Positions 21,640 to 37,958 of a stretch of 64,000 nucleotides of DNA are shown here, in pieces. A program made the translations under genes and the position numbers. The notes under the pieces are model-generated. The model was not told the origin of the DNA and searched no databases. It was given only the letters and a program-made list of their open reading frames with translations. The stretch's first letter is position 1. Each line of letters opens with the position of its first letter. The DNA is taken from assembly GCF_003019035.1 (NCBI RefSeq), contig NZ_CP027447.1. One strand, given 5' to 3'. Origin of the DNA: Escherichia coli. GTDB lineage: Bacteria; Pseudomonadota; Gammaproteobacteria; Enterobacterales; Enterobacteriaceae.

Positions 21640-21724
21640 GCCGAAGTGGCGAAATCGGTAGACGCAGTTGATTCAAAATCAACCGTAGAAATACGTGCCG
21701 GTTCGAGTCCGGCCTTCGGCACCA
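21640..21724 (+). tRNA. leuX: tRNA-Leu (anticodon CAA), 85 nt with long variable arm and encoded CCA
   Basis: GCCGAAGTGGCGAAATCGGTAGACGCAGTTGATTCAAAATCAACCGTAGAAATACGTGCCGGTTCGAGTCCGGCCTTCGGCACCA: acceptor stem GCCGAAG/CTTCGGC, anticodon loop tTCAAaa, T-arm GGTTCGAGTCC. Confidence 0.95.
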
Positions 21725-21913
21725 TACAAAGCTTTTTTTAAGTCTACTAACGTCTACTTTAGTCCATAAAAACAGTAAGTTAAGCGAGTTTCTGACTTGG
21801 CTTAGTCTGTTAACGTCTACTCAATTCCTTGAACATATACCAACCGATGATGGTATAACTGATGGTATTCCCGGTTCGATTGATTTTGATACCAACACAG
21901 GAGGTATCAACTG

Positions 21914-23161
21914 ATGGCTCTCACGGATATCAAAGTTAGGACTACCAAGCCCTCTGACAAACCCTTCAAACTTACTGATGGGCAGGGTATGCACCTCCTG
22001 GTCAACCCCAATGGTTCAAAATACTGGCGACTCCAATACCGTTTCGATGGCAAACAAAAAGTTTTAGCATTGGGTGTTTATCCAATGGTCTCTCTTGGTG
22101 AAGCTCGCAGGAAACGAGATGAGGCCAAAAAGTTGGTATCTGATGGTATCGACCCTTCCGAGAAGAAAAAAGCAGACAAGATCGAGCAGAGCGAAGCCCT
22201 GACATTCGAAGCTGTTGCAAGGGACTGGCATACTGCCTGTAAAAGGAAATGGTCAGATTCCCATAGTGAAAGGGTTTTAAAGAGCCTTGAAGACAACCTT
22301 TTCTCTTCCATAGGACAGAGAAAAATAGCCGAGCTTAAAACTAAGGATCTTCTCGAACCAGTCAAAACTGTTGCGGCTTCTGGACGACTAGAAGTAGCTG
22401 CTCGTCTGCAACAACGAACCACAGCAATCATGCGATATGCCGTCCAGAATGGCTTAATTGACTACAATCCAGCACAAGATATGTCTGGGGCAATTACAGT
22501 TGCGAAACGAACCCACAGACCAGCCTTACCATTTGATAGGTTCTCAGAGCTTTTAGAGCGCATTGAAAGCTTTAAAGGTAGGAAACTTACTAAATTAGTT
22601 GTGAAGCTGACATTGCTCATTTTTATCCGTTCCAGTGAACTCCGATTCGCAAGATGGTCGGAGATCGACTTTGAAAATGCGATGTGGACTATCCCTGGAG
22701 AACGCGAGCCATTACCAGGAGTCAAACATTCCCATCGAGGCTCAAAAATGAAGACCCCACACCTCGTGCCGTTAAGTCGTCAGGCCTTAGAACTTCTAAA
22801 AGTCATCAGAGAAATCAGCGGTGAATGCGACCTTGTATTCATTGGCGATCATGATTTCAGAAAACCTATGAGCGAAAACACAGTCAACAAGGCACTAAGG
22901 TCAATGGGTTATGACACAACCGTTGAGGTATGTGGGCATGGTTTTAGAGCAATGGCTTGTAGTGCTTTGATCGAGTCAGGAAAGTGGTCGAGAGATGCTG
23001 TTGAACGGCAGATGAGCCATCAGGAGCGGAACTCCGTTCGTGCCGCATACATTCATAAAGCTGAGCATTTGGACGAGCGTAGGTTGATGTTGCAGTGGTG
23101 GGCTGATTATCTTGATGAAACAACTAAGAGAAGAATTGCACCTTTCGATTTTAATAACTAA
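21914..23161 (+). CDS. P4-family tyrosine integrase (tRNA-associated)
   Basis: 415-aa protein with N-terminal Arm-type domain (MALTDIKVRTTKPSDKPFKLTDGQGMHLLVNPNGSKYWRLQYRF) and C-terminal catalytic region (..HGFRAM.., ..RAAYIH..); sits next to the tRNA as expected for IntB-like integrases. Confidence 0.9.
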   Translation: MALTDIKVRTTKPSDKPFKLTDGQGMHLLVNPNGSKYWRLQYRFDGKQKVLALGVYPMVSLGEARRKRDEAKKLVSDGIDPSEKKKADKIEQSEALTFEAVARDWHTACKRKWSDSHSERVLKSLEDNLFSSIGQRKIAELKTKDLLEPVKTVAASGRLEVAARLQQRTTAIMRYAVQNGLIDYNPAQDMSGAITVAKRTHRPALPFDRFSELLERIESFKGRKLTKLVVKLTLLIFIRSSELRFARWSEIDFENAMWTIPGEREPLPGVKHSHRGSKMKTPHLVPLSRQALELLKVIREISGECDLVFIGDHDFRKPMSENTVNKALRSMGYDTTVEVCGHGFRAMACSALIESGKWSRDAVERQMSHQERNSVRAAYIHKAEHLDERRLMLQWWADYLDETTKRRIAPFDFNN

Positions 23162-23230
23162 CTGATTTTTATAAGTAAAATGGCGTATTCAATAACCAAT
23201 TGAGACGCCATTTTTTTATTTGCGATTTAT

Positions 23231-24142
23231 GTGCTATTACGAAGTAAAGCTTTTTACAACGGAGTGGCATTAATGAAATCTTGGGTAAAAATGAATAGTT
23301 GGACATCAGAAGACACCAAAGCAGTGAAAACGTGGTTTGATTTGGACAAATATCGAGAGTTTGAAAACATTTCTATTAATATGCTTTACCATGAAATATG
23401 GGCGAGAACCTATTTTTTCAAACCAGTAATAGAAGAAGGAATGCAGAACACAGTATTGAAAAATTATATGCAGATATTGGATGGTGATCCTTTTCTTATC
23501 AAAGAGAAGCACTTAAATTATATGGATGCCGAAAATAAATTATATCAACCCCCATACTTTTTTATTACTACTGTTGATCGAATAGCAAATATCAGTTTTG
23601 ATTGTATGAGAAAGGCTTTATTCATTAGAGCAAATACAGAACAATATAAAATTGATTCCACTATTGAAAATGAATATATTTCCGAAAAAATTCCTGAACA
23701 GTTTCCTACTACGATTATGTTAGAAATCGATCTTGCGGGTGGAAGCGATGATGAGATAGCTGAGGCCCTGCGAGTATCATTACCACAATGGCGAAAAGTA
23801 AAAGGCGTTAAACCTGCACCACTTGATGCAGTCAGATTTGGTTATGGGGCAATAAAAAAATTAATTAGCTATCGAATTATTCCTATGCTTGATTTGCTCG
23901 CATGGTCAGAAAGAAAAAAAGTACTTCTGTCAGACGACAGATTATCTCGATTGCTATACACGGATGAAGATGATGATAAGGCGATTCGCCAAGGATATCA
24001 TATAAGAGATGCTGATCGGCCTTTCGCAATGAAAACTGTAGAAATTGATTTTTTAAGGCAATTTAACTTTTTTATCAATAAAAATCAGCATGTTAAAGAA
24101 ATGAGGGTTTCGGATGTTATGAAACTCTCAGATTCTGAGTGA
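23231..24142 (+). CDS. Hypothetical protein (303 aa), island cargo, no recognisable motif
   Basis: Long AT-rich ORF (GTG start in track; internal ATG candidates) between integrase and alpA. Confidence 0.5.
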   Translation: MLLRSKAFYNGVALMKSWVKMNSWTSEDTKAVKTWFDLDKYREFENISINMLYHEIWARTYFFKPVIEEGMQNTVLKNYMQILDGDPFLIKEKHLNYMDAENKLYQPPYFFITTVDRIANISFDCMRKALFIRANTEQYKIDSTIENEYISEKIPEQFPTTIMLEIDLAGGSDDEIAEALRVSLPQWRKVKGVKPAPLDAVRFGYGAIKKLISYRIIPMLDLLAWSERKKVLLSDDRLSRLLYTDEDDDKAIRQGYHIRDADRPFAMKTVEIDFLRQFNFFINKNQHVKEMRVSDVMKLSDSE

Positions 24143-24262
24143 TATGAATATCCAGAGACTCATAGTTTCGAGCCAAGGATGGCTCTGGTGTTCGTAATCT
24201 CGCTTCATCCATTCGAAATTCATTTGTACTGTAGCCCTGTAGACACAACAGAGGACATACAC

Positions 24263-24466
24263 ATGGAAAATCAAGCTCGTCTCATCCGTTTACCAGAAGT
24301 CATGAAGAAAACTGGATTTGGTAAAGCGTGGATCTATAGGCTTATCAGCAAGGGATGTTTTCCTCAACCAGTAAAAATTGGTCTTCGTGCAGTAGCTTTT
24401 GTAGAGAGCGAAGTAGATAATTGGATCCATGAAACGATTAGTTCTTCGAGAAATAAAGTTTCTTAG
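24263..24466 (+). CDS. alpA: AlpA-like phage/island transcriptional regulator (small HTH, 67 aa)
   Basis: MENQARLIRLPEVMKKTGFGKAWIYRLISKGCFPQPVKIGLRAVAFVESEVDNWI has the AlpA-family pattern (RLP.V...TG......Y......FP.P.K.G.R...W...E...W); the track ORF is extended upstream. Confidence 0.75.
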   Translation: MENQARLIRLPEVMKKTGFGKAWIYRLISKGCFPQPVKIGLRAVAFVESEVDNWIHETISSSRNKVS

Positions 24467-24913
24467 AAAATAAATAAAGAATATTAACACAAATTGTTAG
24501 ACTTTATGGTTGATGTTAATTAAGAGACGATTATGGTATATTAATATAATTTATGAGGTTGAATCCATTTTAAAAAATGGGGTAATAAAAAGGGGCTGTT
24601 TAGAAGCAATTACGCATTGTTATTCTAAATATGAACTAATTAATTATAAAATATCTTTTTTATTTTAAAATGATTATTGTGGTTCTTTCTTCAAATGTCA
24701 ATTTCCTTAACCTATTAAATTAGTGGATCACCGTAATGTATAAGAGTGAACCGTTTGTATTAGATTTTACTTATGAATATTTAGTCGTTTTCACTCAGGC
24801 ATCAAATTGTTGATGAATATATGTTGATTTTGATTCAAAACGAAATAGTCTATTTCTTATACATTTGATATAAAGGGTTATATTGGTATGCTGTACATCA
24901 GAAATGATATGCT

Positions 24914-25168
24914 TTATTTGTTTTTCGCTAATGCTACATATCGTCTATAATATGCAATTGCGCTATATTTTGTCGTATTCATTTTTTCAGCAACTTCTTT
25001 CCATTTTAAACCTGATGATCTTAGTTCAAAAGCAAGCTTTCTTTTTTCAGTTGCTACCCTTTCGTAATTCTCACGGCTAATGCCGTAATATTTTATCACT
25101 GTTGAACGAGATACACCTGCAGCCTTAGCTAAGTCTTTTGCTTTAATTAATTTCCCATGAATTATCAT
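24914..25168 (-). CDS. Small HTH DNA-binding protein (84 aa), co-transcribed downstream of the Rep-like gene
   Basis: HTH-like segment AKDLAKAAGVSRSTVIKYY; its start overlaps the stop of the upstream gene by 4 nt. Confidence 0.5.
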   Translation of the reverse strand: MIIHGKLIKAKDLAKAAGVSRSTVIKYYGISRENYERVATEKRKLAFELRSSGLKWKEVAEKMNTTKYSAIAYYRRYVALAKNK

Positions 25169-26013
25169 AATAATGCCTCCAATGCTATTTCTAATTTTTT
25201 TTGCGTTTTTCTTGTTTTTTTTGCTCTTATTGATTGTATTGTCGAAAATTTCTGAATTGAAAAATTACGCCATGTCCATTTACAAATACTGCTACAAATT
25301 TGTTTTGTCTCTTCATGAGATAATGGATTATGAGGGTTGCTATGATTATTAAGTAAAGTCGCTTTTGATAGCATATCATAAAAAAAACAACGATAGTTTT
25401 TACGTTTTTTAAAACTTAATACTTCTTTATAAGCAATAATTCTTAAATCTTCGAATAAGTTAACGTTGCGGCCCAACCCATGTATAACACTTTTCTTTTT
25501 ACTCGAAATTCTTATTTTGTCTGGGATAAAATCTAAGAGGTATTGTAGATCATATGCTGAAGTATTTGTCCATGTCGTTCTCCATTCATGAATGTTGAGA
25601 GGGTTTTTCATTAAAACATCAGCATAAGCTCTGTCTGCATCTAACCTTTCTGTAAATCCACTCTGAACAATAGCGGCCAATTTTAAAGGCTTATCTCTTG
25701 CCATGTCTGTTTTTAATACCGGATTTTTTAAAGCATAAAGTAAATGAGCATGGCCATTTTTTATGTTTTGTATGATCGTATTTGGTATTGGTAAACCAAC
25801 TAAGTCCCATGCGACCGCTCCATATTTGTGATCTATATCAAAAACCAAACCGTTAATAAAAGATTTGTTATTAAAACAAATATATTTCTTTAGAAGGGCT
25901 TTGTCTTTAGGGGCTCTGTATACCCCATCTCTAAAATCATCACAGCATAAAGCATATTTTTGAATTTGCAGCTTGTATTTTTCTACATTATATATATTTT
26001 CGTCATTTAACAT
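25165..26013 (-). CDS. Replication initiator-like protein (Replicase/primase-like N-terminal domain)
   Basis: 282-aa protein with FDIDHKYGAVAWDLVGLPIPN and NGHAHLLYAL (HxH) motifs reminiscent of plasmid/satellite Rep proteins; family assignment is by motif resemblance only. Confidence 0.5.
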   Translation of the reverse strand: MLNDENIYNVEKYKLQIQKYALCCDDFRDGVYRAPKDKALLKKYICFNNKSFINGLVFDIDHKYGAVAWDLVGLPIPNTIIQNIKNGHAHLLYALKNPVLKTDMARDKPLKLAAIVQSGFTERLDADRAYADVLMKNPLNIHEWRTTWTNTSAYDLQYLLDFIPDKIRISSKKKSVIHGLGRNVNLFEDLRIIAYKEVLSFKKRKNYRCFFYDMLSKATLLNNHSNPHNPLSHEETKQICSSICKWTWRNFSIQKFSTIQSIRAKKTRKTQKKLEIALEALL

Positions 26014-26561
26014 TTATAATCTCCTTATTGTATTCTCCATTTTATTGTATTTTTCTAAAAAGGAGATGCATATTATTTTTATAATTATTTAATAAGGGAT
26101 TTTAAAAGTTTGTCAAGTGTCTAAAAGCCATATCAGATATTAGGTGTTTCTTTTAGGGTTATAATAACAAGAGGGAGGTGCTTCAATGACAATATAAATG
26201 ATGATAGTTTTTTTTAAGTGCAGCTCATAAATCATTATGGCATATTGTAATATGATTACTTTTTATCTGATTAAAAGTAAATATCGATCGCAGATCTTTT
26301 AATTTAATTGTTAATTCAATAATCTGGTCTTGTCAAATTTTCATGGTTAAACTTCAACTTCCTTTATATACAAATCAGATATTTTAAATTTATAACAACA
26401 ATATTTGTAAGCCATAGGAGATATAGAATGTATAAGTTAATTTTTTTTCCAGTTAATACCTGTGATTGTTTTTATTTTGGCGATATAGTTCATTACTTGA
26501 CAATTTAAAAAAAGAATATATAAGTATTTAGATTGATATAGTTAAATTTAAGGATGGTACC

Positions 26562-26975
26562 ATGCAAAATACAAAGCTTAATATTATGGAGCGATATTTG
26601 ATACTGCTCGATAAGTTTGTCGATAAAATTATCGAATCAGGCGTTTCTGAACAACAATTGATCGAGAAGTCGTATCTGTTCTGTGCAGGGTATTATATTA
26701 AGTACCAGCAAGAAATTGAAAGGCTGACATTCTCAAATAAAGATGTCGTTTTAACATTTCTATTATTTTCATACTACAATTATATTAATGAGTTAGATAA
26801 TAATTTAATTAACAAAGTAAGGATGAGGAGAACATGTTCATTACTTATTAATTTCATTGTCGATAATGGTAGTCAGACAGAAAAAATTTATGTGCAGGAA
26901 AAAAAGAAGTACAAATCTTATACATTGAAAAGGGATTTATCAGTAAAGAATAAAAGGAAAAAATATGGTTTATAA
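26562..26975 (+). CDS. Hypothetical protein (137 aa)
   Basis: AT-rich ORF with plausible RBS (AAGGATGG) a few bases upstream; no recognisable motif. Confidence 0.4.
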   Translation: MQNTKLNIMERYLILLDKFVDKIIESGVSEQQLIEKSYLFCAGYYIKYQQEIERLTFSNKDVVLTFLLFSYYNYINELDNNLINKVRMRRTCSLLINFIVDNGSQTEKIYVQEKKKYKSYTLKRDLSVKNKRKKYGL

Positions 26976-27292
26976 CAATATGAAAACTTCCGTGATTTGA
27001 ATTTAAGGCTTTCACCTTATTATCCGATGCCTACATGAAAAATGCCAAAACTTACATAGCTTGCTCCAGCACAAGCAATGTAGAAATCAACTTTATCTCC
27101 TTTAAACATAATCGTGATTGTTTCGTTGCTTCCATGGAGTACCGATGGCAGGGATTTATATCGTTGTCTGGGACTGACCGTTATGCTTATTGTATAAACA
27201 TTTATCTTTGCTGCCAGAAGGGCTCAGACTGTAAGATTCGATAAGGATGCTAACATATTCTATTCGCGATTTTACCGTTCAAGATTTTAATT

Positions 27293-27964
27293 TTAAAATT
27301 GTATTGACTTAATAACGCTTCTGAGTGCGTTATCAAATCTTTGGCTTCTTCTCTTTATCCATTTAATGCAGGTAAAGCTTCCAAGTCGTGAGGCAAAATA
27401 GGTTAACCACATATATTTGTGTTCGTCAAAAACATATCCAGATTTAAACCCCCATGGCAATACAAAAAATGAAATAATCGCAATGCAACAAAGCAAGATA
27501 AATATGGTGGAAAAAAATTTAGGAACAGGCATCGCCCTATAATAAAATGCCATCGAAGCGTTAGGGAAAAGTACGGTGAGAAACGCAGGGATAATAATTG
27601 TCTTTCTATTTAAGTTGACTTCGTATTCACCCGTGGTTGTATTAACAATGAGAGCATCTTTGAAGGCACTAAATGAACCATTAACTCTATACTGGCGAAG
27701 CTCGTATTTACAAATTTTGTGAGATTTTATAAATGTGATACCAAAGGCTGGAATCTGTGTCTCATCCCCCGTATCGGTTTTAACCCAAACTTGGTCAGTA
27801 ATTGGGAGGGGACTGATGACAGTAGCAGAAAAGGTCTCAACGAACATGTAGGTTTCGCCGAACAACTCGAATTTAGGTGTTGTCATCTCAGCTTTCGTTT
27901 CCCGGCGACTTAACGGGTCAATGTTAACTTCTTTATTGCAGTGTTTCGTGATGGAGCTGCTCAT
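27293..27964 (-). CDS. Hypothetical protein with C-terminal transmembrane segments (223 aa)
   Basis: N-terminal soluble region followed by hydrophobic stretches (IIIPAFLTVLFPNASMAFYY, FSTIFILLCCIAIISFFVL). Confidence 0.45.
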   Translation of the reverse strand: MSSSITKHCNKEVNIDPLSRRETKAEMTTPKFELFGETYMFVETFSATVISPLPITDQVWVKTDTGDETQIPAFGITFIKSHKICKYELRQYRVNGSFSAFKDALIVNTTTGEYEVNLNRKTIIIPAFLTVLFPNASMAFYYRAMPVPKFFSTIFILLCCIAIISFFVLPWGFKSGYVFDEHKYMWLTYFASRLGSFTCIKWIKRRSQRFDNALRSVIKSIQF

Positions 27965-28249
27965 ACAAATTCCTATGTTTAAGATGAAATCAGATTCGAT
28001 GATGTATGAAATCGTTCAGTTCCAAAGATGGAATAATGTCTGCCATTTCCAGTACCGGTGCATTAATGAAAAGGATATAGACTAGTAAAATCATAATGTT
28101 AGCATTACAGTGTGAACTAACATTTTGACTAGGTTTACAGGAAACGCAAATCACTTGTACCGATCGATTAACAAATAATGATAGATTATAGCTATCAGTC
28201 TATCTTTATCGATCGGTATAAACGATCAATTTTAGGGGTATGTTGCTTA

Positions 28250-29518
28250 CTAAAATCTACATGTAAGGTGGTAATGTTGCCTTGGCGGCACTAAATTGCC
28301 GTCAAGTAAAGGCTCCACAAAAGTGTTTTTGGGATTGATGGGATGGATTTCTATCTTCATCGCTTCAGTGATGACTTGGTGCTTTGCGGGGCGTCTAAGA
28401 ATTGGGATTTTAAGTTGTCTCAGCAGACGATAAATCGTATCAAGGTAAGGGATGGTTTCCATCCATCTGAATGCTGAGACCTCGTAGCTTTGATTAGGCA
28501 TCTCTTTTACGGCTATAGTAGCTATCGCTTTCTTACTCCCTGCTAAAGCTTCCGAGGAACACTTCTCTTCTACATAAGCGACAGCACTTTCGTCTTTACC
28601 TGCATGCCTATCAATAATAAAAGCTTCGAAGGAGTTTTTAACGTTTTCCTTTAATATTTCGTTTGGATTCGCTTTAGTGATAGTTGCTTTTAGGTCAAAC
28701 AGAAAGCCGTTATCGCGTTCTGGTCTATAATCGAGTTTACCCTGCAAGGTCGACCATGAATAACACTTAGCTAATTGCGAAGCTTTGAAAGCAATCCCGG
28801 CGTATTCGAATGAGAAACCATTCATTTTACCTGTAGATGTGATATTGGGTAATGCATTAATATTTTGTTCAAAAAGCTGTTGGACAAACTCAGTGGTCGA
28901 TACTCTTTTAGAAACTAACGTCTCTAAAGCGTTCTGGATGATGGTTTTTGGGCATTGTTCACCTGTCCTTTTCTCTTGCATCGCTTCATTTCGTGTTTTT
29001 TTTCGTTTTAGTTTAGGGCAGGGCAATGCTAAAGAGGTTTTTGTTTTAGGGCCTTTGGTTCTTAGTAGCGAATAGTCGTGTTCAAGCTGTTGGATAATGC
29101 GTGTACTAATCAGGTTTTCATTTTTTCCGAGATAGAGTTTGCCTGTAATACGGTCTATGCGGCTGGCGATAATGTGGATGTGTTGACCGACCGCATCGTC
29201 ATGCAACACGTAGCATCTGAGATGCGTTTCCGAGAAGCCGATGCGCTTCATATAGTCATCAGCTATAGCGGACCACTGAGCATCGGTTAGCACTTCGTCC
29301 TTTGGTAAACGAAGCGAATTGTGCCAAACAGGTTTATCCACATCAGGGCGAAGCGTTTTTGTTAGATTGAATTCAGTGATCAGATCTTTCGCTGCACACC
29401 CATCCATATTTCCCCCGATCACGACAGGAGCTACCCTATGATGAGAATCTGGTTTTAACGTATAGAGGACGATCCCGATAAAATTCTTACCTCTGCGGAT
29501 CTTTTGCATTCCCTTCAT
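28250..29518 (-). CDS. Mobilization relaxase (MobA/MobL-type)
   Basis: Relaxase three-histidine motif HDDAVGQHIHIIASRID (HxDx4HxH); probable start MKGMQKIRRG at 29518 (track ORF extends to 29569); overlaps the upstream mobC. Confidence 0.75.
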   Translation of the reverse strand: MKGMQKIRRGKNFIGIVLYTLKPDSHHRVAPVVIGGNMDGCAAKDLITEFNLTKTLRPDVDKPVWHNSLRLPKDEVLTDAQWSAIADDYMKRIGFSETHLRCYVLHDDAVGQHIHIIASRIDRITGKLYLGKNENLISTRIIQQLEHDYSLLRTKGPKTKTSLALPCPKLKRKKTRNEAMQEKRTGEQCPKTIIQNALETLVSKRVSTTEFVQQLFEQNINALPNITSTGKMNGFSFEYAGIAFKASQLAKCYSWSTLQGKLDYRPERDNGFLFDLKATITKANPNEILKENVKNSFEAFIIDRHAGKDESAVAYVEEKCSSEALAGSKKAIATIAVKEMPNQSYEVSAFRWMETIPYLDTIYRLLRQLKIPILRRPAKHQVITEAMKIEIHPINPKNTFVEPLLDGNLVPPRQHYHLTCRF

Positions 29519-29924
29519 CGGAGTCTCCCCACAAGTCGGCGGTGATGAGATGTAAGCGAAGATCGGCAATTTGTCGCTTCACTGCAAATAGTTCCGTTTT
29601 TGTCAGGTGGCTTCCGGTACTTTTGTTATCAAGGTGGGCAACAATTTTATTTAGTTTCTGTGAAAGGTCAGCTAAAGATCTCCATGCTTTTATATTAATA
29701 GCTGGAACAACACCAGGAAGCGCATTAAGAAAAGATAAACGAAGCCATTCCCCTTTGCGATGCTGGCCACGTTTTTCATTTAGAAGCGTCAGCTCTTTAT
29801 CATTAAGCCTGACACTGACGCAATGATTACGAATTTGCTTGCGTGAAAGCTTCGTTTCGCAAGAGCTTCTACAGGAAGCTCGCGTATTTATAATAGTCTT
29901 ATTGAAATTATTATTACTGACCAT
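29487..29924 (-). CDS. MobC-like relaxosome accessory protein
   Basis: 145-aa basic protein with a MobC-like LSQKLNKIVAHLDNK motif (similar to the NLNQiARhlN signature), immediately upstream of and overlapping the relaxase gene. Confidence 0.6.
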   Translation of the reverse strand: MVSNNNFNKTIINTRASCRSSCETKLSRKQIRNHCVSVRLNDKELTLLNEKRGQHRKGEWLRLSFLNALPGVVPAINIKAWRSLADLSQKLNKIVAHLDNKSTGSHLTKTELFAVKRQIADLRLHLITADLWGDSDEGNAKDPQR

Positions 29925-30053
29925 ATTAACCTCTTTTTAAATATATAAATAAAAATATTATTTTATTTATATAATAAAATAGTCAGATGTCAATATACAT
30001 GTATTATATTGATTTTAACTTTTTTCAACTGAAAGGCGAAAAAACAAGGGGAA

Positions 30054-30085
30054 ACTCAATGAAGCAGCGTAGCGCTTCGTTGAGT
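30054..30085. promoter_or_regulatory. Candidate oriT inverted repeat upstream of mobC
   Basis: ACTCAATGAAGC...GCTTCGTTGAGT near-perfect inverted repeat (11/12 arms) in the AT-rich leader of the mobC-mobA operon. Confidence 0.4.
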
Positions 30086-30148
30086 TAGCCCTTGCTTTAA
30101 CAATATTGACCAAAATCTCTTTTTAATATAAAATGAATCCTAAGAGGG

Positions 30149-30724
30149 ATGGAGGTATACATGCTCAATGATAATAAAATTCGCACTGCATTAATAAATT
30201 TTTTACTGGCTAAAAAACCAGCGCCAGAAAGGATTATTGAAGAATTGCATATCGAGAACGGAAGAGCAATAGCTGATGTCGTAGCAGCATATAGTTATTT
30301 GCATTGCTACGAGATTAAAGGAGAGACTGATTCAATTGGAAGAATCCTTACTCAAGCTAATTATTATAATACTTCTTTCAACAAAATTACACTTGTAACT
30401 ACAAAAAATCATTTAACATGGGCATTAAAGCGTTCCCCATCCTTCTGGGGAATCATATTAGTAGAATTAAAAGATAATAACATTACTTTCAAATATATAA
30501 GGGGGGCTAAAGATAATATTTTCTTCAGAAAAGAAAATGCTTTCATGATGTTATGGAAGGACGAAATGTTGAAGGTAGCAAATGAAGCCTCTGTACCAGT
30601 TAAAAGATCACACACGAGGATGGAAATAGCCGAAATGCTTAGTAGTTCGCTTAAGAAAAGTGATGCTTTGCAAACTATACAAAGCATCATATCTAATCGA
30701 CTAAAATTAAGGGATGCAGTGTAA
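30149..30724 (+). CDS. Hypothetical protein with PD-(D/E)xK nuclease-like signature (191 aa)
   Basis: Motif ..ENGRAIADVVAAYSYLHCYEIKGE.. (hydrophobic-D ... E-I-K) matches the PD-(D/E)xK core pattern; convergent with and overlapping the 3' end of the three-gene operon. Confidence 0.5.
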   Translation: MEVYMLNDNKIRTALINFLLAKKPAPERIIEELHIENGRAIADVVAAYSYLHCYEIKGETDSIGRILTQANYYNTSFNKITLVTTKNHLTWALKRSPSFWGIILVELKDNNITFKYIRGAKDNIFFRKENAFMMLWKDEMLKVANEASVPVKRSHTRMEIAEMLSSSLKKSDALQTIQSIISNRLKLRDAV

Positions 30725-31822
30725 AACAAACTTAATATGTGAAGTCAGCATGGCTTTAATCCAGGATGAGGGATTACCTGCTTTATCTGGTTTTTTAGGC
30801 GAATAACTACTTCTATCATAAACATATTGTTCCCCATATGAGAATGTAGTTGCCCTGAAGAATTTTTGGTCATGGATTATTGTGGCAATATCATAATATT
30901 GACCATTTCCTCTCTCATCATTCTGGAAAGATCCACCTCTAACACAAAACATATTATTCTTATACGTATAAAATACTTTTGGTGCGGAAACTTTTCTAAA
31001 TAGCTTCGGATCTAAATCTATATCAGAATAATCAGGGCTAACAATTCCATAATCCCCGTATATAATATTACCAATTTTCTTTTCGTTAACTAATGTGTCC
31101 CAAATTTTCCACTCCGCTCTCGTGAACGATTTTCTTTGATAGGTTTCAAGTAATGAGGAAATATTAGCCGGTATCGAAGAGGCTGATATAATGCACTTAT
31201 CAAAGTGAAAGTCTTTATTTACATTTAGAATAAAGTATTCAGCCATGTCAGTTAGTCGCTTTATGTCAGTTGGCTGAATGTATCGTAGATCTATAATTAA
31301 GTGCAATTGTTCTACTTTCAGATTTCTAATGATTACCATCATCTTCAAGAGATGCATTTTTGTTATTTTATAGCTCTCAATATCTTCAGCAACTAACCTT
31401 ATGGCTAATTTCCCTCCGTTAATTGATAGGCTATCGTAAACACTTTTATTGTGTTTCTCTAATCGGTTGATACCGATCACAGGAATATATAAGTAATCAC
31501 GAAAAAGAGATAGTATATATTCGTATTGCTCCACTCCATCAATTAATATTTCATCATCCAGGTCATAATTATCTATGTAAAATTCCATGTTTTTAAATAA
31601 AGCTTTATTATCCAATCTCTTTTTGAAAGAATGAGCTTTATTCAATACATTTTCCATTGTTTGATTATTTGATTCTCTTGGTATATCGAAGAATGGAGTG
31701 ATTTGTGTGAAGATTGTAGCATCTTTTTTGTAAAGCTCTTCGAGGGCTTGAGTTTCGTTGCTTTTTGCTTTTAAAAATGGGATATATTTACTCATTGAAA
31801 CCAAGCTCCCTTCTGACATCAA
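30707..31822 (-). CDS. Hypothetical protein (371 aa), third gene of the ImmA-containing operon
   Basis: Long AT-rich ORF whose start overlaps the stop of the ImmA/IrrE gene; no recognisable catalytic motif. Confidence 0.6.
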   Translation of the reverse strand: MMSEGSLVSMSKYIPFLKAKSNETQALEELYKKDATIFTQITPFFDIPRESNNQTMENVLNKAHSFKKRLDNKALFKNMEFYIDNYDLDDEILIDGVEQYEYILSLFRDYLYIPVIGINRLEKHNKSVYDSLSINGGKLAIRLVAEDIESYKITKMHLLKMMVIIRNLKVEQLHLIIDLRYIQPTDIKRLTDMAEYFILNVNKDFHFDKCIISASSIPANISSLLETYQRKSFTRAEWKIWDTLVNEKKIGNIIYGDYGIVSPDYSDIDLDPKLFRKVSAPKVFYTYKNNMFCVRGGSFQNDERGNGQYYDIATIIHDQKFFRATTFSYGEQYVYDRSSYSPKKPDKAGNPSSWIKAMLTSHIKFVLHCIP

Positions 31823-32717
31823 TTGAATTAACTAAACTTGAGAAGATAACATAATTTTTGTGTTTATTTCTTACCGCACCAGCAGCGATTATTGGGTGTA
31901 TATTAAATCTTTCGCAGACAGATATTAGACTATCAGGTTCATTAAATGTCCGAAAGACAGCTCTATTTGCTTCTCTGGGTATCAGACTATCAGCTGCGGC
32001 TCTGTTAGCCTCAATCTCTACGTCTGTTTCTGTGTCAATGTCTAAATCATCGAGGATTGGCGTATCTAATTTATCATAGTGCAGAGCAATGTGGGATAAT
32101 TCATGCATTAATGTAAACCAAAAGTAATCATATCTCGAATATCTTAAACTTAGACCTATGACTGGTGTTTTATTTGGTAAACAAAAGGTACAGCCATCTA
32201 ACTTCATACCTTTGAATGATTTTTCAATTATTAGAATAATACCATATTCTTCTTTAAGGATTCTTGAAATATAATGAATAGATTGTACATCCCTGCTCAA
32301 ACTTGCAATTATTCCGAGGTTTTCAAAATCCAGATCTGTGAAGACCTTTGTATTTCCTTTTAAATAGGTGTTTAATGACTTTTTTTCTATTAATGATAAC
32401 CATAAATTTATGAGTTCAGAATTAGCATCATCTCTTTTTCTAAATAGTTTATTTTTGTTAAATGTTAAATTTTTTGCTACATCAAGTAGGAATTGATTTT
32501 CGTTTTCCATTTCTGGTTTACGGGAAATAATATCTTTTATTTTTTTGCTGTTTTTTATCTTTTGGAAATTTAGTAAAATTTCCAAATCAGACTCACTAAA
32601 CTGATTTGATACAAAGAAATCTTTCTCATGCGGCATTTGAAATTCCTCCGAGAGTTGATGCGACAACCTGTGATGCCTCATAAAATCGGAGATTTTCTTT
32701 TTCATGGTCGACGCCAA
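31788..32717 (-). CDS. ImmA/IrrE-family Zn-metallopeptidase (COG2856-type) with ~190-aa N-terminal extension
   Basis: HExxH motif WFTLMHELSHIALH followed by the third zinc-ligand region EIEANRAAADSLIP, characteristic of ImmA/IrrE peptidases. Confidence 0.8.
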   Translation of the reverse strand: MASTMKKKISDFMRHHRLSHQLSEEFQMPHEKDFFVSNQFSESDLEILLNFQKIKNSKKIKDIISRKPEMENENQFLLDVAKNLTFNKNKLFRKRDDANSELINLWLSLIEKKSLNTYLKGNTKVFTDLDFENLGIIASLSRDVQSIHYISRILKEEYGIILIIEKSFKGMKLDGCTFCLPNKTPVIGLSLRYSRYDYFWFTLMHELSHIALHYDKLDTPILDDLDIDTETDVEIEANRAAADSLIPREANRAVFRTFNEPDSLISVCERFNIHPIIAAGAVRNKHKNYVIFSSLVNSIDVRRELGFNE

Positions 32718-33273
32718 AATCAGTCATGCCAAGATGGTTATAGAAACCCTCTGCACTTGGGAGTGCATGTAGGCAAAAACCAGGTCTATACCCCCAGTTT
32801 GAACAGGCATAATTAATTGTATGTTGGATAAGCTCTTTGCCTACTCCACTATATTTAGGGGTAAAGTTAGGACGAGGACGATTCCAGTATGCTGTTGCAA
32901 TATAATCCACGTAGAAAATTTTATTATTATCAAATCGACTTTCTTTTGGATGGTAAAGAACACAAACACCTTGAACTGCGTCGTTTATTTGCAGAAAAAA
33001 CCACTGATAATCATCACCATTACATTGCAAAAGCTTGCGGCACCAGTCCCAATGCCAATCAGAAAGGCTGTTATCTGCCAGAATTTTCCTTGCTAACTCG
33101 TTATCAGTGGCCATACCGGGGTTAGCAGTAATTAGAGCTGACAATAAATCAGCACGATAGGCACCCCATTTGCTCTGCAAGTCAACCACTTTAGCATAGT
33201 CAATCCCTACGTGAATTTGGTAATCAACTGATTTTCCTGAACAATTTTCAACGACCATAAGCTCCCTTTCCAT
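32626..33273 (-). CDS. GNAT-fold acetyltransferase-like protein (215 aa), first gene of the operon
   Basis: GNAT-like motifs ..FYVDYIATAY..RP.....GVGKELIQ.. and ..SAEGFYNHLGMTDFG..; its stop overlaps the start region of the ImmA gene. Confidence 0.5.
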   Translation of the reverse strand: MERELMVVENCSGKSVDYQIHVGIDYAKVVDLQSKWGAYRADLLSALITANPGMATDNELARKILADNSLSDWHWDWCRKLLQCNGDDYQWFFLQINDAVQGVCVLYHPKESRFDNNKIFYVDYIATAYWNRPRPNFTPKYSGVGKELIQHTINYACSNWGYRPGFCLHALPSAEGFYNHLGMTDFGVDHEKENLRFYEASQVVASTLGGISNAA

Positions 33274-33505
33274 TGTGTCGGCTCATTTTGACTAATAATA
33301 CAACTTTATAGTCTTTAAGAATGCTCTGCTGGTCAAATTTCTTATTTGATCTATAGAAGGCTATGTTTTGAAGCTGGTTGTTAATCTGGTTATGATGTGG
33401 TCATATTAGAATTGGTAAATCAAACCAATTTTGTTGGTATGAATGATGGTATCTTCGCTAATGTAATATGCTTTATTCACTAAAAATCATAAGGATAGTT
33501 GCGAT

Positions 33506-33529
33506 GTTCGAGTCCGGCATCCGCACCAC
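33506..33529 (+). repeat. Degenerate direct repeat of the leuX 3' end (candidate att site at the distal island boundary)
   Basis: GTTCGAGTCCGGCATCCGCACCAC versus leuX GTTCGAGTCCGGCCTTCGGCACCA: 13 identical bases followed by 8 of 11 matching with one gap. Confidence 0.5.
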
Positions 33530-34203: not shown

Positions 34204-36252
34204 ATGTATGGAAAAATGGAAAAAGTTTATGATACCACTAGAATTAGTAATCTTGCTAACGACCCGAAACAGTTTTGTTCTTTTTTTTGTGAGTACATAA
34301 AAAGAGATGATATTAGTATAGATATCGCCTTGGATGTGCTGAGAATATCTTCCATCTATTATAATAGATTTTCAGTTCAGACTGAAGTTGAGTATAACAA
34401 TACATTCAAAAAATGTATTAATGAGCTAGTAAACTCATTTCCTGATAACATTGAACTAATCTCTGAGTTCGAGAGTCAATGTAAAATTATGCATGATATA
34501 AATAATTCTTTCTTTGCGGCTACAAAATGTGCTGGTATTTGGCGTAAAAATACAAAAAAATCACATGCATTAATACTTAATCTCATCATGTTTTGTGAGA
34601 TGTTTTTATCATTATTATCATCCTTGGTTGTGGTCAATGATCCTAAAAAAATGAAGAGGATTTTTCCATTGTTTATCGTTTCTGAAAATATTAATATTCA
34701 TGCTGAACCTGATATCGAATATTTTCGAGTTATCGATAGGGCATTTGATGAGGTAGCCAATTACACCGGAAGAATATTTTCTTATTTACGGACTCATGGG
34801 CCATTGAAACTAACTTCTTGTGTGAATAAACAAACCTTGCTTTCAATGGGAGGGTACCTTAATGAGTGGAATGTTTTTGACTCATTAAGCAGAGTAAGAG
34901 ACTTTTTCAGACTAAGTAGTGCAGTATTTACAAAATTGGATAATAACATTTACTCTCTTGAGGTTGATAGTTTTTGTTTATACCGAGATTATGAGATTGC
35001 AAGAAATAGACTAATGATGAGAGCGTCACATCTATATAGCGAAGTTCATGAATTTAGTAACAAACATTTTCATCTAAATAGTTGGGTAAAGGATCATATG
35101 CCATCTTACTTAAATTCTGATGGCGTTTTTAGCTCATTTCATCTAAGCGAGTTGGAAAATATGTCTCCTGATGACCTTCATGAAGAATATGGGAATATAT
35201 CATTATTTAATTGGGTGCACGCTTATCAATGTTTAGTCGAGTTATCTAAAGAAGAAATGAGCAAAAGATTTTCATCGACAAAACCTATACCCCTACAGTT
35301 GGATCGCTGGCTGATCATAAAAAGCCGTGAGAGTTGGTTATCATTCTTTCAACGTAAGGGGATTGCAGTAGATGCAGCAAAAAAACTGATAGATTATTTT
35401 ACCTTCAATTCAAAATCACATGATCTTAATGATTGCCCATTTATTCCCTGTATGGACGGTTTATGCTTAATGCCTGCATTAATAGCAAATAGCTCAGTGA
35501 CTCGCTCTCTAATGTCATTATTTGGTTCCAAAAAAATTTCTCAAGCAAGTAAAGGGCGATTTCATGAGCAACAATTTATAAAACAAGTTCGTGATGCGGG
35601 GATTAAAGCTTCTCCAATTGATGCTCATGCTAATTATCAGTGCGATTGCGTGATTCTCCTGGATGATTGTTTGATTTTTACAGAACTAAAATCAAATGGT
35701 CAACCAATATATTATGGTAAGTACTATCAGCAAGTGTGTAACATCGTTGGAGATAGCTCATTAATACATGATCATAATAATAAATTTATGCGTTCTTATT
35801 TTCAACAAATAAATCGAATTTCTGAACATTATCTTAATCATCTTAATGTGATCATTAAAGAATTCGAACTACCATCAACATGGCAACCCAAAGGTGTGTA
35901 TAAGCTTATTGTTACTACAACTATGCTCGGTGGGAAATATCATGTGGATGATACATATGTAGCGGACAAATATGCATTATCTAGTTTTTTTCAACGAATA
36001 CCTGGAGTGATATATCAAACAAATGAAAATGGAAAAATGGCGAAAAATATCATTGATGGGTTTGAGTGTTGCGAAGGGGAAATCACTATCGATAAGTTTA
36101 TAGATTATCTTTCCTCTTTGCCCAGTATTAATGCTGTACGTAAAAATATAAAAAAATTAACTTATAGTGTTCGATTTAATGAAAAATTAGTCCATCACCC
36201 TTATTATGATTCTTGGGCTTTTGGCCCATATATTCGTAAGGGAAATGATTAG
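34204..36252 (+). CDS. Large hypothetical protein (682 aa), AT-rich, possible C-terminal PD-(D/E)xK-like motif
   Basis: Uninterrupted 2 kb ORF with strong terminator downstream; C-terminal stretch CDCVILLDDCLIFTELKS has a D...E.K pattern; otherwise unrecognised. Confidence 0.6.
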   Translation: MYGKMEKVYDTTRISNLANDPKQFCSFFCEYIKRDDISIDIALDVLRISSIYYNRFSVQTEVEYNNTFKKCINELVNSFPDNIELISEFESQCKIMHDINNSFFAATKCAGIWRKNTKKSHALILNLIMFCEMFLSLLSSLVVVNDPKKMKRIFPLFIVSENINIHAEPDIEYFRVIDRAFDEVANYTGRIFSYLRTHGPLKLTSCVNKQTLLSMGGYLNEWNVFDSLSRVRDFFRLSSAVFTKLDNNIYSLEVDSFCLYRDYEIARNRLMMRASHLYSEVHEFSNKHFHLNSWVKDHMPSYLNSDGVFSSFHLSELENMSPDDLHEEYGNISLFNWVHAYQCLVELSKEEMSKRFSSTKPIPLQLDRWLIIKSRESWLSFFQRKGIAVDAAKKLIDYFTFNSKSHDLNDCPFIPCMDGLCLMPALIANSSVTRSLMSLFGSKKISQASKGRFHEQQFIKQVRDAGIKASPIDAHANYQCDCVILLDDCLIFTELKSNGQPIYYGKYYQQVCNIVGDSSLIHDHNNKFMRSYFQQINRISEHYLNHLNVIIKEFELPSTWQPKGVYKLIVTTTMLGGKYHVDDTYVADKYALSSFFQRIPGVIYQTNENGKMAKNIIDGFECCEGEITIDKFIDYLSSLPSINAVRKNIKKLTYSVRFNEKLVHHPYYDSWAFGPYIRKGND

Positions 36253-36874: not shown

Positions 36875-37747
36875 TCACCCCCTAAAAACCTCTTTCCGAT
36901 GCCACTCCACAAATCCCTCATAAGGGTAATTTTTACGTACCTGCGGCAACGCAATAGTTTTCCCGTCAAAATCCCAGAATAGTTTCTCAACGATCCCTCC
37001 GCCGTTTACCGCATCTGATACCAGTACCCGCATATTTTCATCCAGGCCAATCGATCCTTTATCAAAGGCTTTATGGTGTATTGCACAAAGCGCCAGACCA
37101 TTAGGAATTTCACAAGGACCGCCGTGCTGTTTCCATTTTATATGCGCCGCTTCCAGCGCGACGGTGGTGTCGTCGTGGCGCATATTAAAGCCACATATCG
37201 CGCACTGGTAGTTATAAGCGCGTAATACATTTTTGCGAAATAACGGGTCGCGCTGTTTACGGATTTGCTGGAGATCAAAACCCAGTTCGTCAGCAATTTC
37301 TTCCTGAATACTCTCGGTGAAGTGCGCTTCGAGTATCTGTTGCGCCAGAGTATTGATGAGTTTTTTATTGCCAGTTACCAGGGCGTAGTGCTGTTCATCG
37401 AAACCGCCTGCAACGTGGTATTCAGTCAGTTCCTTCACTGGTGGTTGTCGGCTGCTCCCTGCTGTTGAGCAAAGCCCGGCATTGTGTAATTGCCAGAATC
37501 CGTCGCCTTGTAATCGCCAGAACGGCATATCAGGTCGGTACTGTGAACGCTGTGGCCCAAAACGTTCCAGTAAATTGTGCAGAGGTTCGTAGATTTCCGA
37601 TCCATAATCGAAAAGGCGCGGATGCCCATTCAGGTATCCCGCTAATACGTATAGCAGTAACAATGGTTTATGCGGCGCGCGCTGTTCACCCTTGTGCCAG
37701 ATTTTTATATTGGCAATTGCCTGCTGTAGCGATTTACTGGAAGCCAT
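36875..37747 (-). CDS. HNH-motif endonuclease with N-terminal DNA-recognition domain (candidate modification-dependent restriction enzyme)
   Basis: C-terminal His-Me finger CAICGF...HIKWKQHGGPCEIPNGLALCAIHHKAFD; probable start MASSKS at 37747 (track ORF extends to 37804). Confidence 0.7.
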   Translation of the reverse strand: MASSKSLQQAIANIKIWHKGEQRAPHKPLLLLYVLAGYLNGHPRLFDYGSEIYEPLHNLLERFGPQRSQYRPDMPFWRLQGDGFWQLHNAGLCSTAGSSRQPPVKELTEYHVAGGFDEQHYALVTGNKKLINTLAQQILEAHFTESIQEEIADELGFDLQQIRKQRDPLFRKNVLRAYNYQCAICGFNMRHDDTTVALEAAHIKWKQHGGPCEIPNGLALCAIHHKAFDKGSIGLDENMRVLVSDAVNGGGIVEKLFWDFDGKTIALPQVRKNYPYEGFVEWHRKEVFRG

Positions 37748-37958
37748 TGATATCCCTGGCAGTGAAATAATTGCGATCATGCTCGCAAATTTTCTGCTGT
37801 TCAAGCCTGCAAGTGAAGATATATTACCTTGATCTCATTTGTTTTTTTGCTGCCTGTGTACCCTAATTGCCATGCGATGTTGCACCGACGCAAACCACCG
37901 TTTACGCCGGAGGAGTTAAAAGCGCTGATGGATGCAAATAAATCAAATTAATGAACGC

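Follow-up and report, generated by a model that had tools for sequence, protein, structure and literature searches.

A GNAT–peptidase–β–cII cassette at leuX in Escherichia coli: a probable architectural variant within the PD-λ-2 / gop-β-cII anti-phage group

Is a tightly coupled operon in the cargo of an Escherichia coli mobile element, built around an ImmA/IrrE metallopeptidase, a defence system of its own kind, or does it belong with systems that already have a name? The operon occupies positions 30707-33273, on the minus strand, of the 64,000-nt stretch of E. coli DNA analysed here (contig NZ_CP027447.1; the whole stretch is referred to as the window), in an island at the tRNA gene leuX. 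An original prediction had read it as three genes, coding for a GNAT-like protein, the peptidase and a 371-aa protein without recognisable motif, and had proposed a defence or toxin-antitoxin (TA)-like role for a unit that it could match to no named system. This role remains the best reading, whereas the other two points need revision. A fourth gene, convergent with the operon (30161..30724, plus strand), had been overlooked, and three of the four products are recognised by models of known anti-phage systems, namely PD-Lambda-2_B and PD-Lambda-2_C for the second and third genes of the operon and the cII model of Gop_beta_cll for the convergent gene.

With a probability of 0.62, we take this four-gene cargo cassette to be a variant architecture among the abortive-infection, TA-like anti-phage systems of the PD-λ-2 / P4 gop-β-cII group, including the mechanism proposed below. 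That the cassette is a defence or TA-like system belonging to this group we put at about 0.6; our confidence in the specific order of events, which is drawn by analogy, is low. The locus links PD-λ-2, with its peptidase and β genes, to the P4-type cII gene; both PD-λ-2 and gop-β-cII are validated as anti-phage, and their mechanisms are unsolved.

Gene layout and coupling

The open reading frame (ORF) listing bore out three co-directional, overlapping ORFs, which span 32626-33273, 31788-32717 and 30707-31822 when stretched to their first possible start. We corrected these starts on the basis of Shine-Dalgarno support and agreement with the RefSeq calls of the Prokaryotic Genome Annotation Pipeline (PGAP) in a 99.6%-identical E. 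coli locus. That is, the ATG of gene A (33258) follows AAGGGAG, that of gene B (32636) follows GGAGG, and that of gene C (31795) again follows AAGGGAG. The PGAP products, named GNAT family N-acetyltransferase, ImmA/IrrE family metallo-endopeptidase and beta family protein, have the same lengths as A, B and C. Gene D was assigned by NCBIfam, PADLOC and BLASTP, and the two putative regulatory sites come from a consensus scan:

33258..32626, minus strand: gene A, GNAT-fold protein, 210 aa, first gene of the operon
32636..31788, minus strand: gene B, ImmA/IrrE (M78) metallopeptidase without a helix-turn-helix (HTH) domain, 282 aa
31795..30707, minus strand: gene C, P4 beta-family protein, 362 aa
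30161..30724, plus strand: gene D, P4 cII / sce7726-family protein, 187 aa, convergent with C
30661..30689, minus strand: terminator-like hairpin (12-bp stem, then a T-rich tail) just 3′ of the C stop codon, within the 3′ end of D
30106..30134, plus strand: promoter-like site upstream of D (TTGACC-17-TAAAAT, 10/12 matches)

The consensus scan returned no σ70-type site on the minus strand upstream of A.

Genes A and B overlap by 11 nt (ATGCCGCATGA), genes B and C by 8 nt (ATGAGTAA), and the 3′ ends of C and D by 18 nt. Homologous loci repeat such short overlaps, or have junctions of 1-4 nt between the cassette genes, which argues that the A/B/C overlaps are conserved rather than due to chance. 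With the starts corrected, the predicted picture of three tightly coupled minus-strand genes in the mobile cargo at leuX therefore holds. The cassette region has a GC content of 33%, compared to ~50% in the flanking core genome.

The four proteins and their relatives

The supposed 371-aa unknown turned out to be a 362-aa member of the Pfam family Beta_protein (PF14350), the family of phage P4 β, which it matches over its full length (2.5e-53). The PADLOC model PD-Lambda-2_C (PDLC03983) recognises the same protein at 2.6e-47. Since the PD-Lambda-2_C models also match the stand-alone β proteins of the Rac-SA53 prophage and of Rhodococcus, such a match alone identifies no PD-λ-2 system. Compared directly with P4 β, the window protein belongs to the same Pfam family, yet BLASTP found no significant similarity, and PADLOC's "beta" model (PDLC02985) does not recognise it. 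AlphaFold2 predicted a TIM barrel for C (predicted local distance difference test score, pLDDT, 93.9; predicted template modelling score, pTM, 0.92). Over 44 β proteins, K9, D37, D75, R133, D169, E228 and D248 are invariant or nearly so, and these residues sit at or just past the C-terminal ends of predicted strands. Because this is where TIM barrels place their active sites, β is probably an enzyme; in the model, its invariant charged residues form a ring resembling an active site.

Gene B had been correctly recognised as an ImmA/IrrE metallopeptidase. It matches Pfam Peptidase_M78 (PF06114; 2.6e-10, residues 134-245) and carries the HELSH and EIEANRAAADSLIP motifs; 44/44 family members retain its zinc-site residues H178, E179, H182 and E207, which are also invariant in an alignment with HTH-fused relatives. 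Judged by these residues, the active site appears intact. The extension ascribed to the N terminus of the peptidase does exist, although it measures ~133 aa ahead of the Pfam match rather than ~190 aa. PADLOC assigned B to PD-Lambda-2_B (PDLC03982; 3e-47, 160 bits) over profile positions 175-396 of 402 only, and gave weak matches to RmrA and capP. As the original prediction had supposed, an HTH is lacking: Pfam detected none in B at E ≤ 10 and none in the 120 best B homologues, all of which are 227-301 aa long and match PF06114 only. In the alignment with the HTH-fused relatives, the Xre segment is missing and homology starts near an LFRK…W block at ~residue 60. Searches of A, B, C, D and their family profiles against PDB chain sequences returned nothing useful except a motif-level match between B and 9vzy.

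For gene A, proposed to be GNAT-like, the Pfam match is weak, partial and limited to the C-terminal part (Acetyltransf_10, 6.2e-5). An AlphaFold2 model computed with nine homologues as input (pLDDT 87, pTM 0.82) confirmed the GNAT fold at the level of structure prediction. None of the 5,027 PADLOC models (PADLOC-DB v2) matched A, nor did any in NCBIfam, and the A-family profile found no solved GNAT among PDB chain sequences. Invariant residues include the motif-B Tyr173 within an AExYYxxLGM block, W125-N126-R127, H164 and a Trp-rich DWHWxW block. A word-indexed homology search recovered only 10 clusters of relatives; with a full profile search, the number rose to 1,012 (50% identity), and nearly all of these proteins are ~200-230 aa long. 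No ribbon-helix-helix (RHH) ORF, nor any other small ORF, lies upstream of A within the window. Likewise, none was found upstream of A in 40 genome loci (see below), a weak test by phmmer with a single RHH query; in two remote loci, an RHH gene does directly precede the A-like gene.

The product of gene D scored 149.5 bits against NCBIfam sce7726_fam (NF033832; curated cut-off 70) and 7e-23 against the PADLOC cll model of Gop_beta_cll, and aligned with P4 cII at 25% identity (BLASTP, E = 5e-14). A Pfam scan with a release that does not contain PF26915 gave no match. Across 20 diverse cII-like proteins, including P4 cII, the residues E28, D39 and E51-x-K53 are invariant, and 43/44 cassette members keep the motif E28, D39, E51, K53. 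In residues and spacing, this E…D…ExK pattern matches the active-site signature of PD-(D/E)xK nucleases. In every informative locus examined, a cII-like gene adjoins beta.

With strong PADLOC matches for both B and C, and with the same A-B-C order and coupling, one may ask if the locus is a plain PD-λ-2 system for which present models give an incomplete annotation. We consider this improbable. A has a GNAT fold instead of being HigB-like, and no PADLOC model matches it; the Xre HTH, a defining feature of PD-λ-2 B, is missing from B; the models matched by C are generic enough to include stand-alone β proteins; and a fourth conserved gene is present.

Distribution, modularity and the carrier element

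The order A→B→C→←D, with M78, Beta_protein and Phage_P4_cII as the last three members, recurred in all informative contexts sampled, which comprised Pantoea, Burkholderia, Herbaspirillum and metagenomic contigs and reach A identities of 37% and beyond (remotest A homologues, E = 1.7e-24). For a broader view, species genomes (one genome per species) were scanned by β alignment, and gene order in the resulting 40 loci was scored with hidden Markov models from this study's own alignments. All 35 loci with sufficiently long flanks on both sides had the four genes in the same order, confirming the co-occurrence that the original prediction had named as a check; of the rest, four are cut by contig ends and one (L054) has a different first gene. 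Convergent genes for β and the cII-like protein overlap at their 3′ ends in 37/38 loci, by a median of 28 nt. Flanking genes, in contrast, differ from locus to locus.

Taxonomically, the loci cover Gamma-, Beta-, Alpha- and Epsilonproteobacteria, Bdellovibrionia, Gemmatimonadota, Verrucomicrobia, Planctomycetota, Riflebacteria, cyanobacteria and two contigs of Asgard-labelled metagenome-assembled genomes (MAGs). The latter two, L026 and L027 from Asgard/Lokiarchaeota bins, are near-identical, ~4.3 kb long and carry a complete cassette; they are too short to exclude contamination or mis-binning.

The pair of β and cII-like genes also occurs without any upstream partner, in the Rac-like prophage Rac-SA53 (where the two are annotated "beta" and "CII phage-like protein"), the E. 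coli phage-plasmid pSTEC1024_3 and the Rhodococcus plasmid pLP414. In two other loci, L054 and L059, a DUF6932-type gene and an HTH-bearing peptidase gene form the front module, in both cases followed by β and cII-like genes; the L054 peptidase matches PD-Lambda-2_B at 4e-76. Thus, the conserved core consists of β and a convergent, 3′-overlapping cII-like gene, and the front module is interchangeable.

Two loci deserve a separate remark. At 1597-2856, L054, a Nostocales contig, has a 171-aa HTH ORF and a 224-aa peptidase ORF that share a reading frame with one stop codon between them, probably a PD-λ-2 B-like HTH-peptidase fusion broken by mutation or sequencing error. L060, from an Opitutaceae MAG, has an RHH-fronted cassette (932-3131) beside an E1 (ThiF)/JAB/Y4jH-like cluster which resembles ubiquitin-like conjugation defence operons and suggests a defence island. 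Several loci have defence genes nearby, including those for HsdR, an SNF2 helicase and E1/JAB proteins.

This distribution also bears on the possibility that acetyltransferase, peptidase and TIM-barrel enzyme belong together in a small operon with a metabolic or housekeeping task. Both folds, GNAT and TIM barrel, are indeed typical of metabolic enzymes. Yet only 4/5,426 complete E. coli genomes carry the cassette, its distribution across phyla is patchy with differing flanks, the window cassette is low in GC and sits on a mobile element, and homologues have been validated in defence. We rejected this explanation, which strikes us as extremely unlikely, on context and distribution.

Within the window, the cassette makes up the last ~3.2 kb of an integrative mobilizable element, beside attR. 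The element was delimited by the tRNA gene, a repeat and the empty site:

21725..33505, no strand assigned: integrative mobilizable element, ~11.8 kb, at tRNA-Leu(CAA) leuX
21640-21724: tRNA-Leu(CAA)
21914-23161: integrase, within the leuX element
25165-26013: replication initiator, within the leuX element
28250-29569: MobP-type relaxase, within the leuX element

An exact 13-nt repeat of the tRNA 3′ end at 33506-33518 bounds the element; a search for a complete attR copy of the leuX 3′ end found only this exact core. Most E. coli genomes are without the element, E. coli FCI1 among them. In Pseudocitrobacter faecalis, the shared sequence is restricted to 30033-33528 (97.7% identity), indicating that the four genes move as a module.

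Being the terminal cargo of an integrative mobilizable element would also suit an addiction module, which stabilises its carrier by post-segregational killing rather than defending against phages. In addition, A resembles GNAT toxins at the fold level, an RHH gene precedes A in some loci, and peptidase-HTH fusions were first predicted as TA components (PMC2701414). Nevertheless, addiction appears unlikely to us, as both experimentally tested relatives protect against phages and the cassette is also found in chromosomes with no integrase nearby, for example in Herbaspirillum (L005); moreover, the two roles are not mutually exclusive. A second question raised by the carrier is whether B serves as an ImmA/ImmR-type switch for excision or transfer of the element. 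ImmA-family peptidases are established regulators of ICEBs1 and of prophage induction (summarised in PMC2701414), and the locus does lie within a mobilizable element. On the other side, no HTH repressor is fused or adjacent, the cassette occurs in unrelated elements and in non-mobile contexts, and it constantly comes with β and cII-like genes, neither of which is known to regulate mobile elements. We rejected such an element regulator on context and distribution, and rate it as very unlikely.

The leuX element, which looks complete, further carries a DUF6387 gene and, upstream of the relaxase gene, a small partner gene. A second island with its own integrase stands in tandem behind the element in E. 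coli S19-651 and encodes a Ser/Thr kinase, HerA and a type I restriction-modification system. Two other features of the window lie outside the element on the cassette side:

34204-36252, plus strand: 682-aa ORF in AT-rich DNA (marginal PADLOC match to PDC-M29B, E = 0.0012)
36875-37750, minus strand: phosphorothioated-DNA-binding restriction endonuclease (NCBIfam PT-DNA_restrict, 1.9e-131; PADLOC HNH models)

The endonuclease gene is located 3.6 kb from the cassette. Its neighbour in E. coli FCI1 is annotated as an HNH endonuclease gene; the window is without ~570 bp present there (FCI1 locus, 7556 -> 8128), and that HNH gene has probably been truncated or lost. The 682-aa ORF matches neither NCBIfam nor PHROG. 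It directly adjoins leuX in most E. coli genomes, where it is annotated "hypothetical protein", and, placed beside the restriction endonuclease, it may be another defence candidate. Farther away, two plus-strand ORFs of 550 aa (997-2649) and 395 aa (5045-6232) lie in low-GC patches (34-40%) on either side of the gene for ornithine carbamoyltransferase (2721-3725), and neither is recognised by NCBIfam or PADLOC.

Proposed mechanism and comparison with known systems

How might the cassette work? By analogy with PD-λ-2 and with signal-activated proteases of the ImmA/IrrE/CapP type, the GNAT-fold protein would restrain the peptidase in uninfected cells. A phage cue might then free or activate the peptidase, which, together with β or by acting on it, could unleash a toxic activity; the best candidates for the latter would be the cII-like putative nuclease and/or acetylation by the GNAT protein. 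The infected cell would be arrested prior to phage release. The original prediction had assigned the peptidase the role of controlling an effector, which is likewise an inference. In PD-λ-2, the peptidase protein itself is toxic on overexpression and is neutralised by the product of the first gene (PMC9519451).

Several observations count against this interpretation of the cassette and its mechanism. The nuclease assignment of D is based on a motif, and a profile search against PDB sequences gave chance matches only. In A, the acetyl-CoA (pyrophosphate) loop Q/RxxGxG is poorly conserved, and β matches no specific enzyme family. The protective PD-λ-2 clone reached only ~390 bp past its three genes (PMC9519451), implying that a cII-like gene is not always needed. 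Lastly, the patterns used in our genome scan were built from cassette members, which biases the survey to this subfamily; the tight linkage hence holds within it, not for all β proteins.

Taking the survey and the structural predictions together, one can picture a more general scheme, which we think possible but doubtful. The β TIM barrel and the cII-like PD-(D/E)xK protein would be the ancient two-enzyme effector core of a large, mostly unrecognised defence superfamily, and the toxin-derived front modules (gop, HigB plus Xre-peptidase, GNAT plus peptidase, DUF6932 plus HTH-peptidase) would serve as phage sensors or safety catches. In the present cassette, a protease and an acetyltransferase would gate a nuclease, and the convergent 3′ overlap would add control by antisense RNA or transcriptional interference. 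We know of no defence system for which such a logic has been described.

Irrespective of that scheme, the survey suggests that β and cII are the part that is conserved and that the gene or genes in front can be exchanged. Cassettes of the GNAT–peptidase–β–cII type are widespread, but since no model of PADLOC-DB v2 recognises A, routine annotation will probably overlook them or report an incomplete system. Being compact and native to E. coli, with four putative catalytic sites that can be mutated, the cassette offers access to the β family and to an HTH-less ImmA/IrrE protease in immunity.

Among characterised systems, PD-λ-2 is the first to be compared. In this system, described in E. coli ECOR42 by Vassallo et al. 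(2022), A is HigB-like, B is an Xre-peptidase and C resembles P4 β; it defends against λvir by abortive infection, and C is required (PMC9519451). Overexpressed alone, its B is toxic, and A rescues the cells (PMC9519451). Like PD-λ-2, the window locus has a coupled, co-directional three-gene operon in which an M78 peptidase protein precedes a P4 β-family protein. The linker and peptidase region of B is common to both, a full-length β is encoded immediately downstream, and the first gene of each contains a toxin-type domain. That domain, however, is HigB-like (PF09907) in PD-λ-2 and a GNAT fold here; B has an Xre HTH there and none here; and the conserved convergent cII-like gene of our cassette is not part of the validated PD-λ-2 clone.

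The second comparison is with gop-β-cII of phage P4 (Ghisotti 1990; Rousset et al. 2022), laid out as gop → β → ← cII. This system protects against λ and P1 (PMC9122126), and its killing is triggered by a phage accessory gene (bioRxiv 10.1101/2023.04.06.535777). Shared with the window is β followed by a convergent cII/sce7726 (PF26915) gene. In contrast, gop is replaced by the GNAT and peptidase genes: neither A nor B aligns to P4 Gop, and PADLOC gave no gop match. The window β is akin to P4 β at the profile level only, D lacks the ~75-aa C-terminal tail of P4 cII, and the carrier is a mobilizable island rather than the P4 satellite hotspot. Furthermore, the β and cII 3′ ends overlap here, whereas a terminator separates them in P4. 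The stand-alone pairs of Rac-SA53 and Rhodococcus pLP414 have the same convergent, 3′-overlapping arrangement but no upstream partners.

Two further groups resemble single components. ImmA/IrrE switches (ImmA-ImmR, IrrE-DdrO, CapP-CapH and RmrA of RosmerTA) share the M78 HExxH with its downstream Glu; in our cassette, however, an Xre-type substrate or repressor is neither fused nor adjacent, the partners being the GNAT-fold protein and β. GNAT-RHH TA systems (TacAT, AtaRT, KacAT) have a motif-B tyrosine to which the conserved Tyr173 of A may correspond, and an upstream RHH gene as in the two remote loci. Unlike them, the window has no RHH gene, and A has no sequence-level similarity to solved GNAT toxins, possesses an extra N-terminal segment of ~60 aa with the DWHWxW block, and always has the peptidase, β and cII genes behind it. 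In 2009, a TA function was predicted for Xre-COG2856 fusions that have a toxin upstream and, independently of these, for GNAT-RHH pairs (PMC2701414); our literature search found no description of a GNAT–M78–β–cII cassette. Since it has neither the HigB-like A and HTH-fused B of PD-λ-2 nor the gop of P4, we assign the locus to neither system; it lends itself well to experiments on an unsolved family, without being a system of a categorically new kind.

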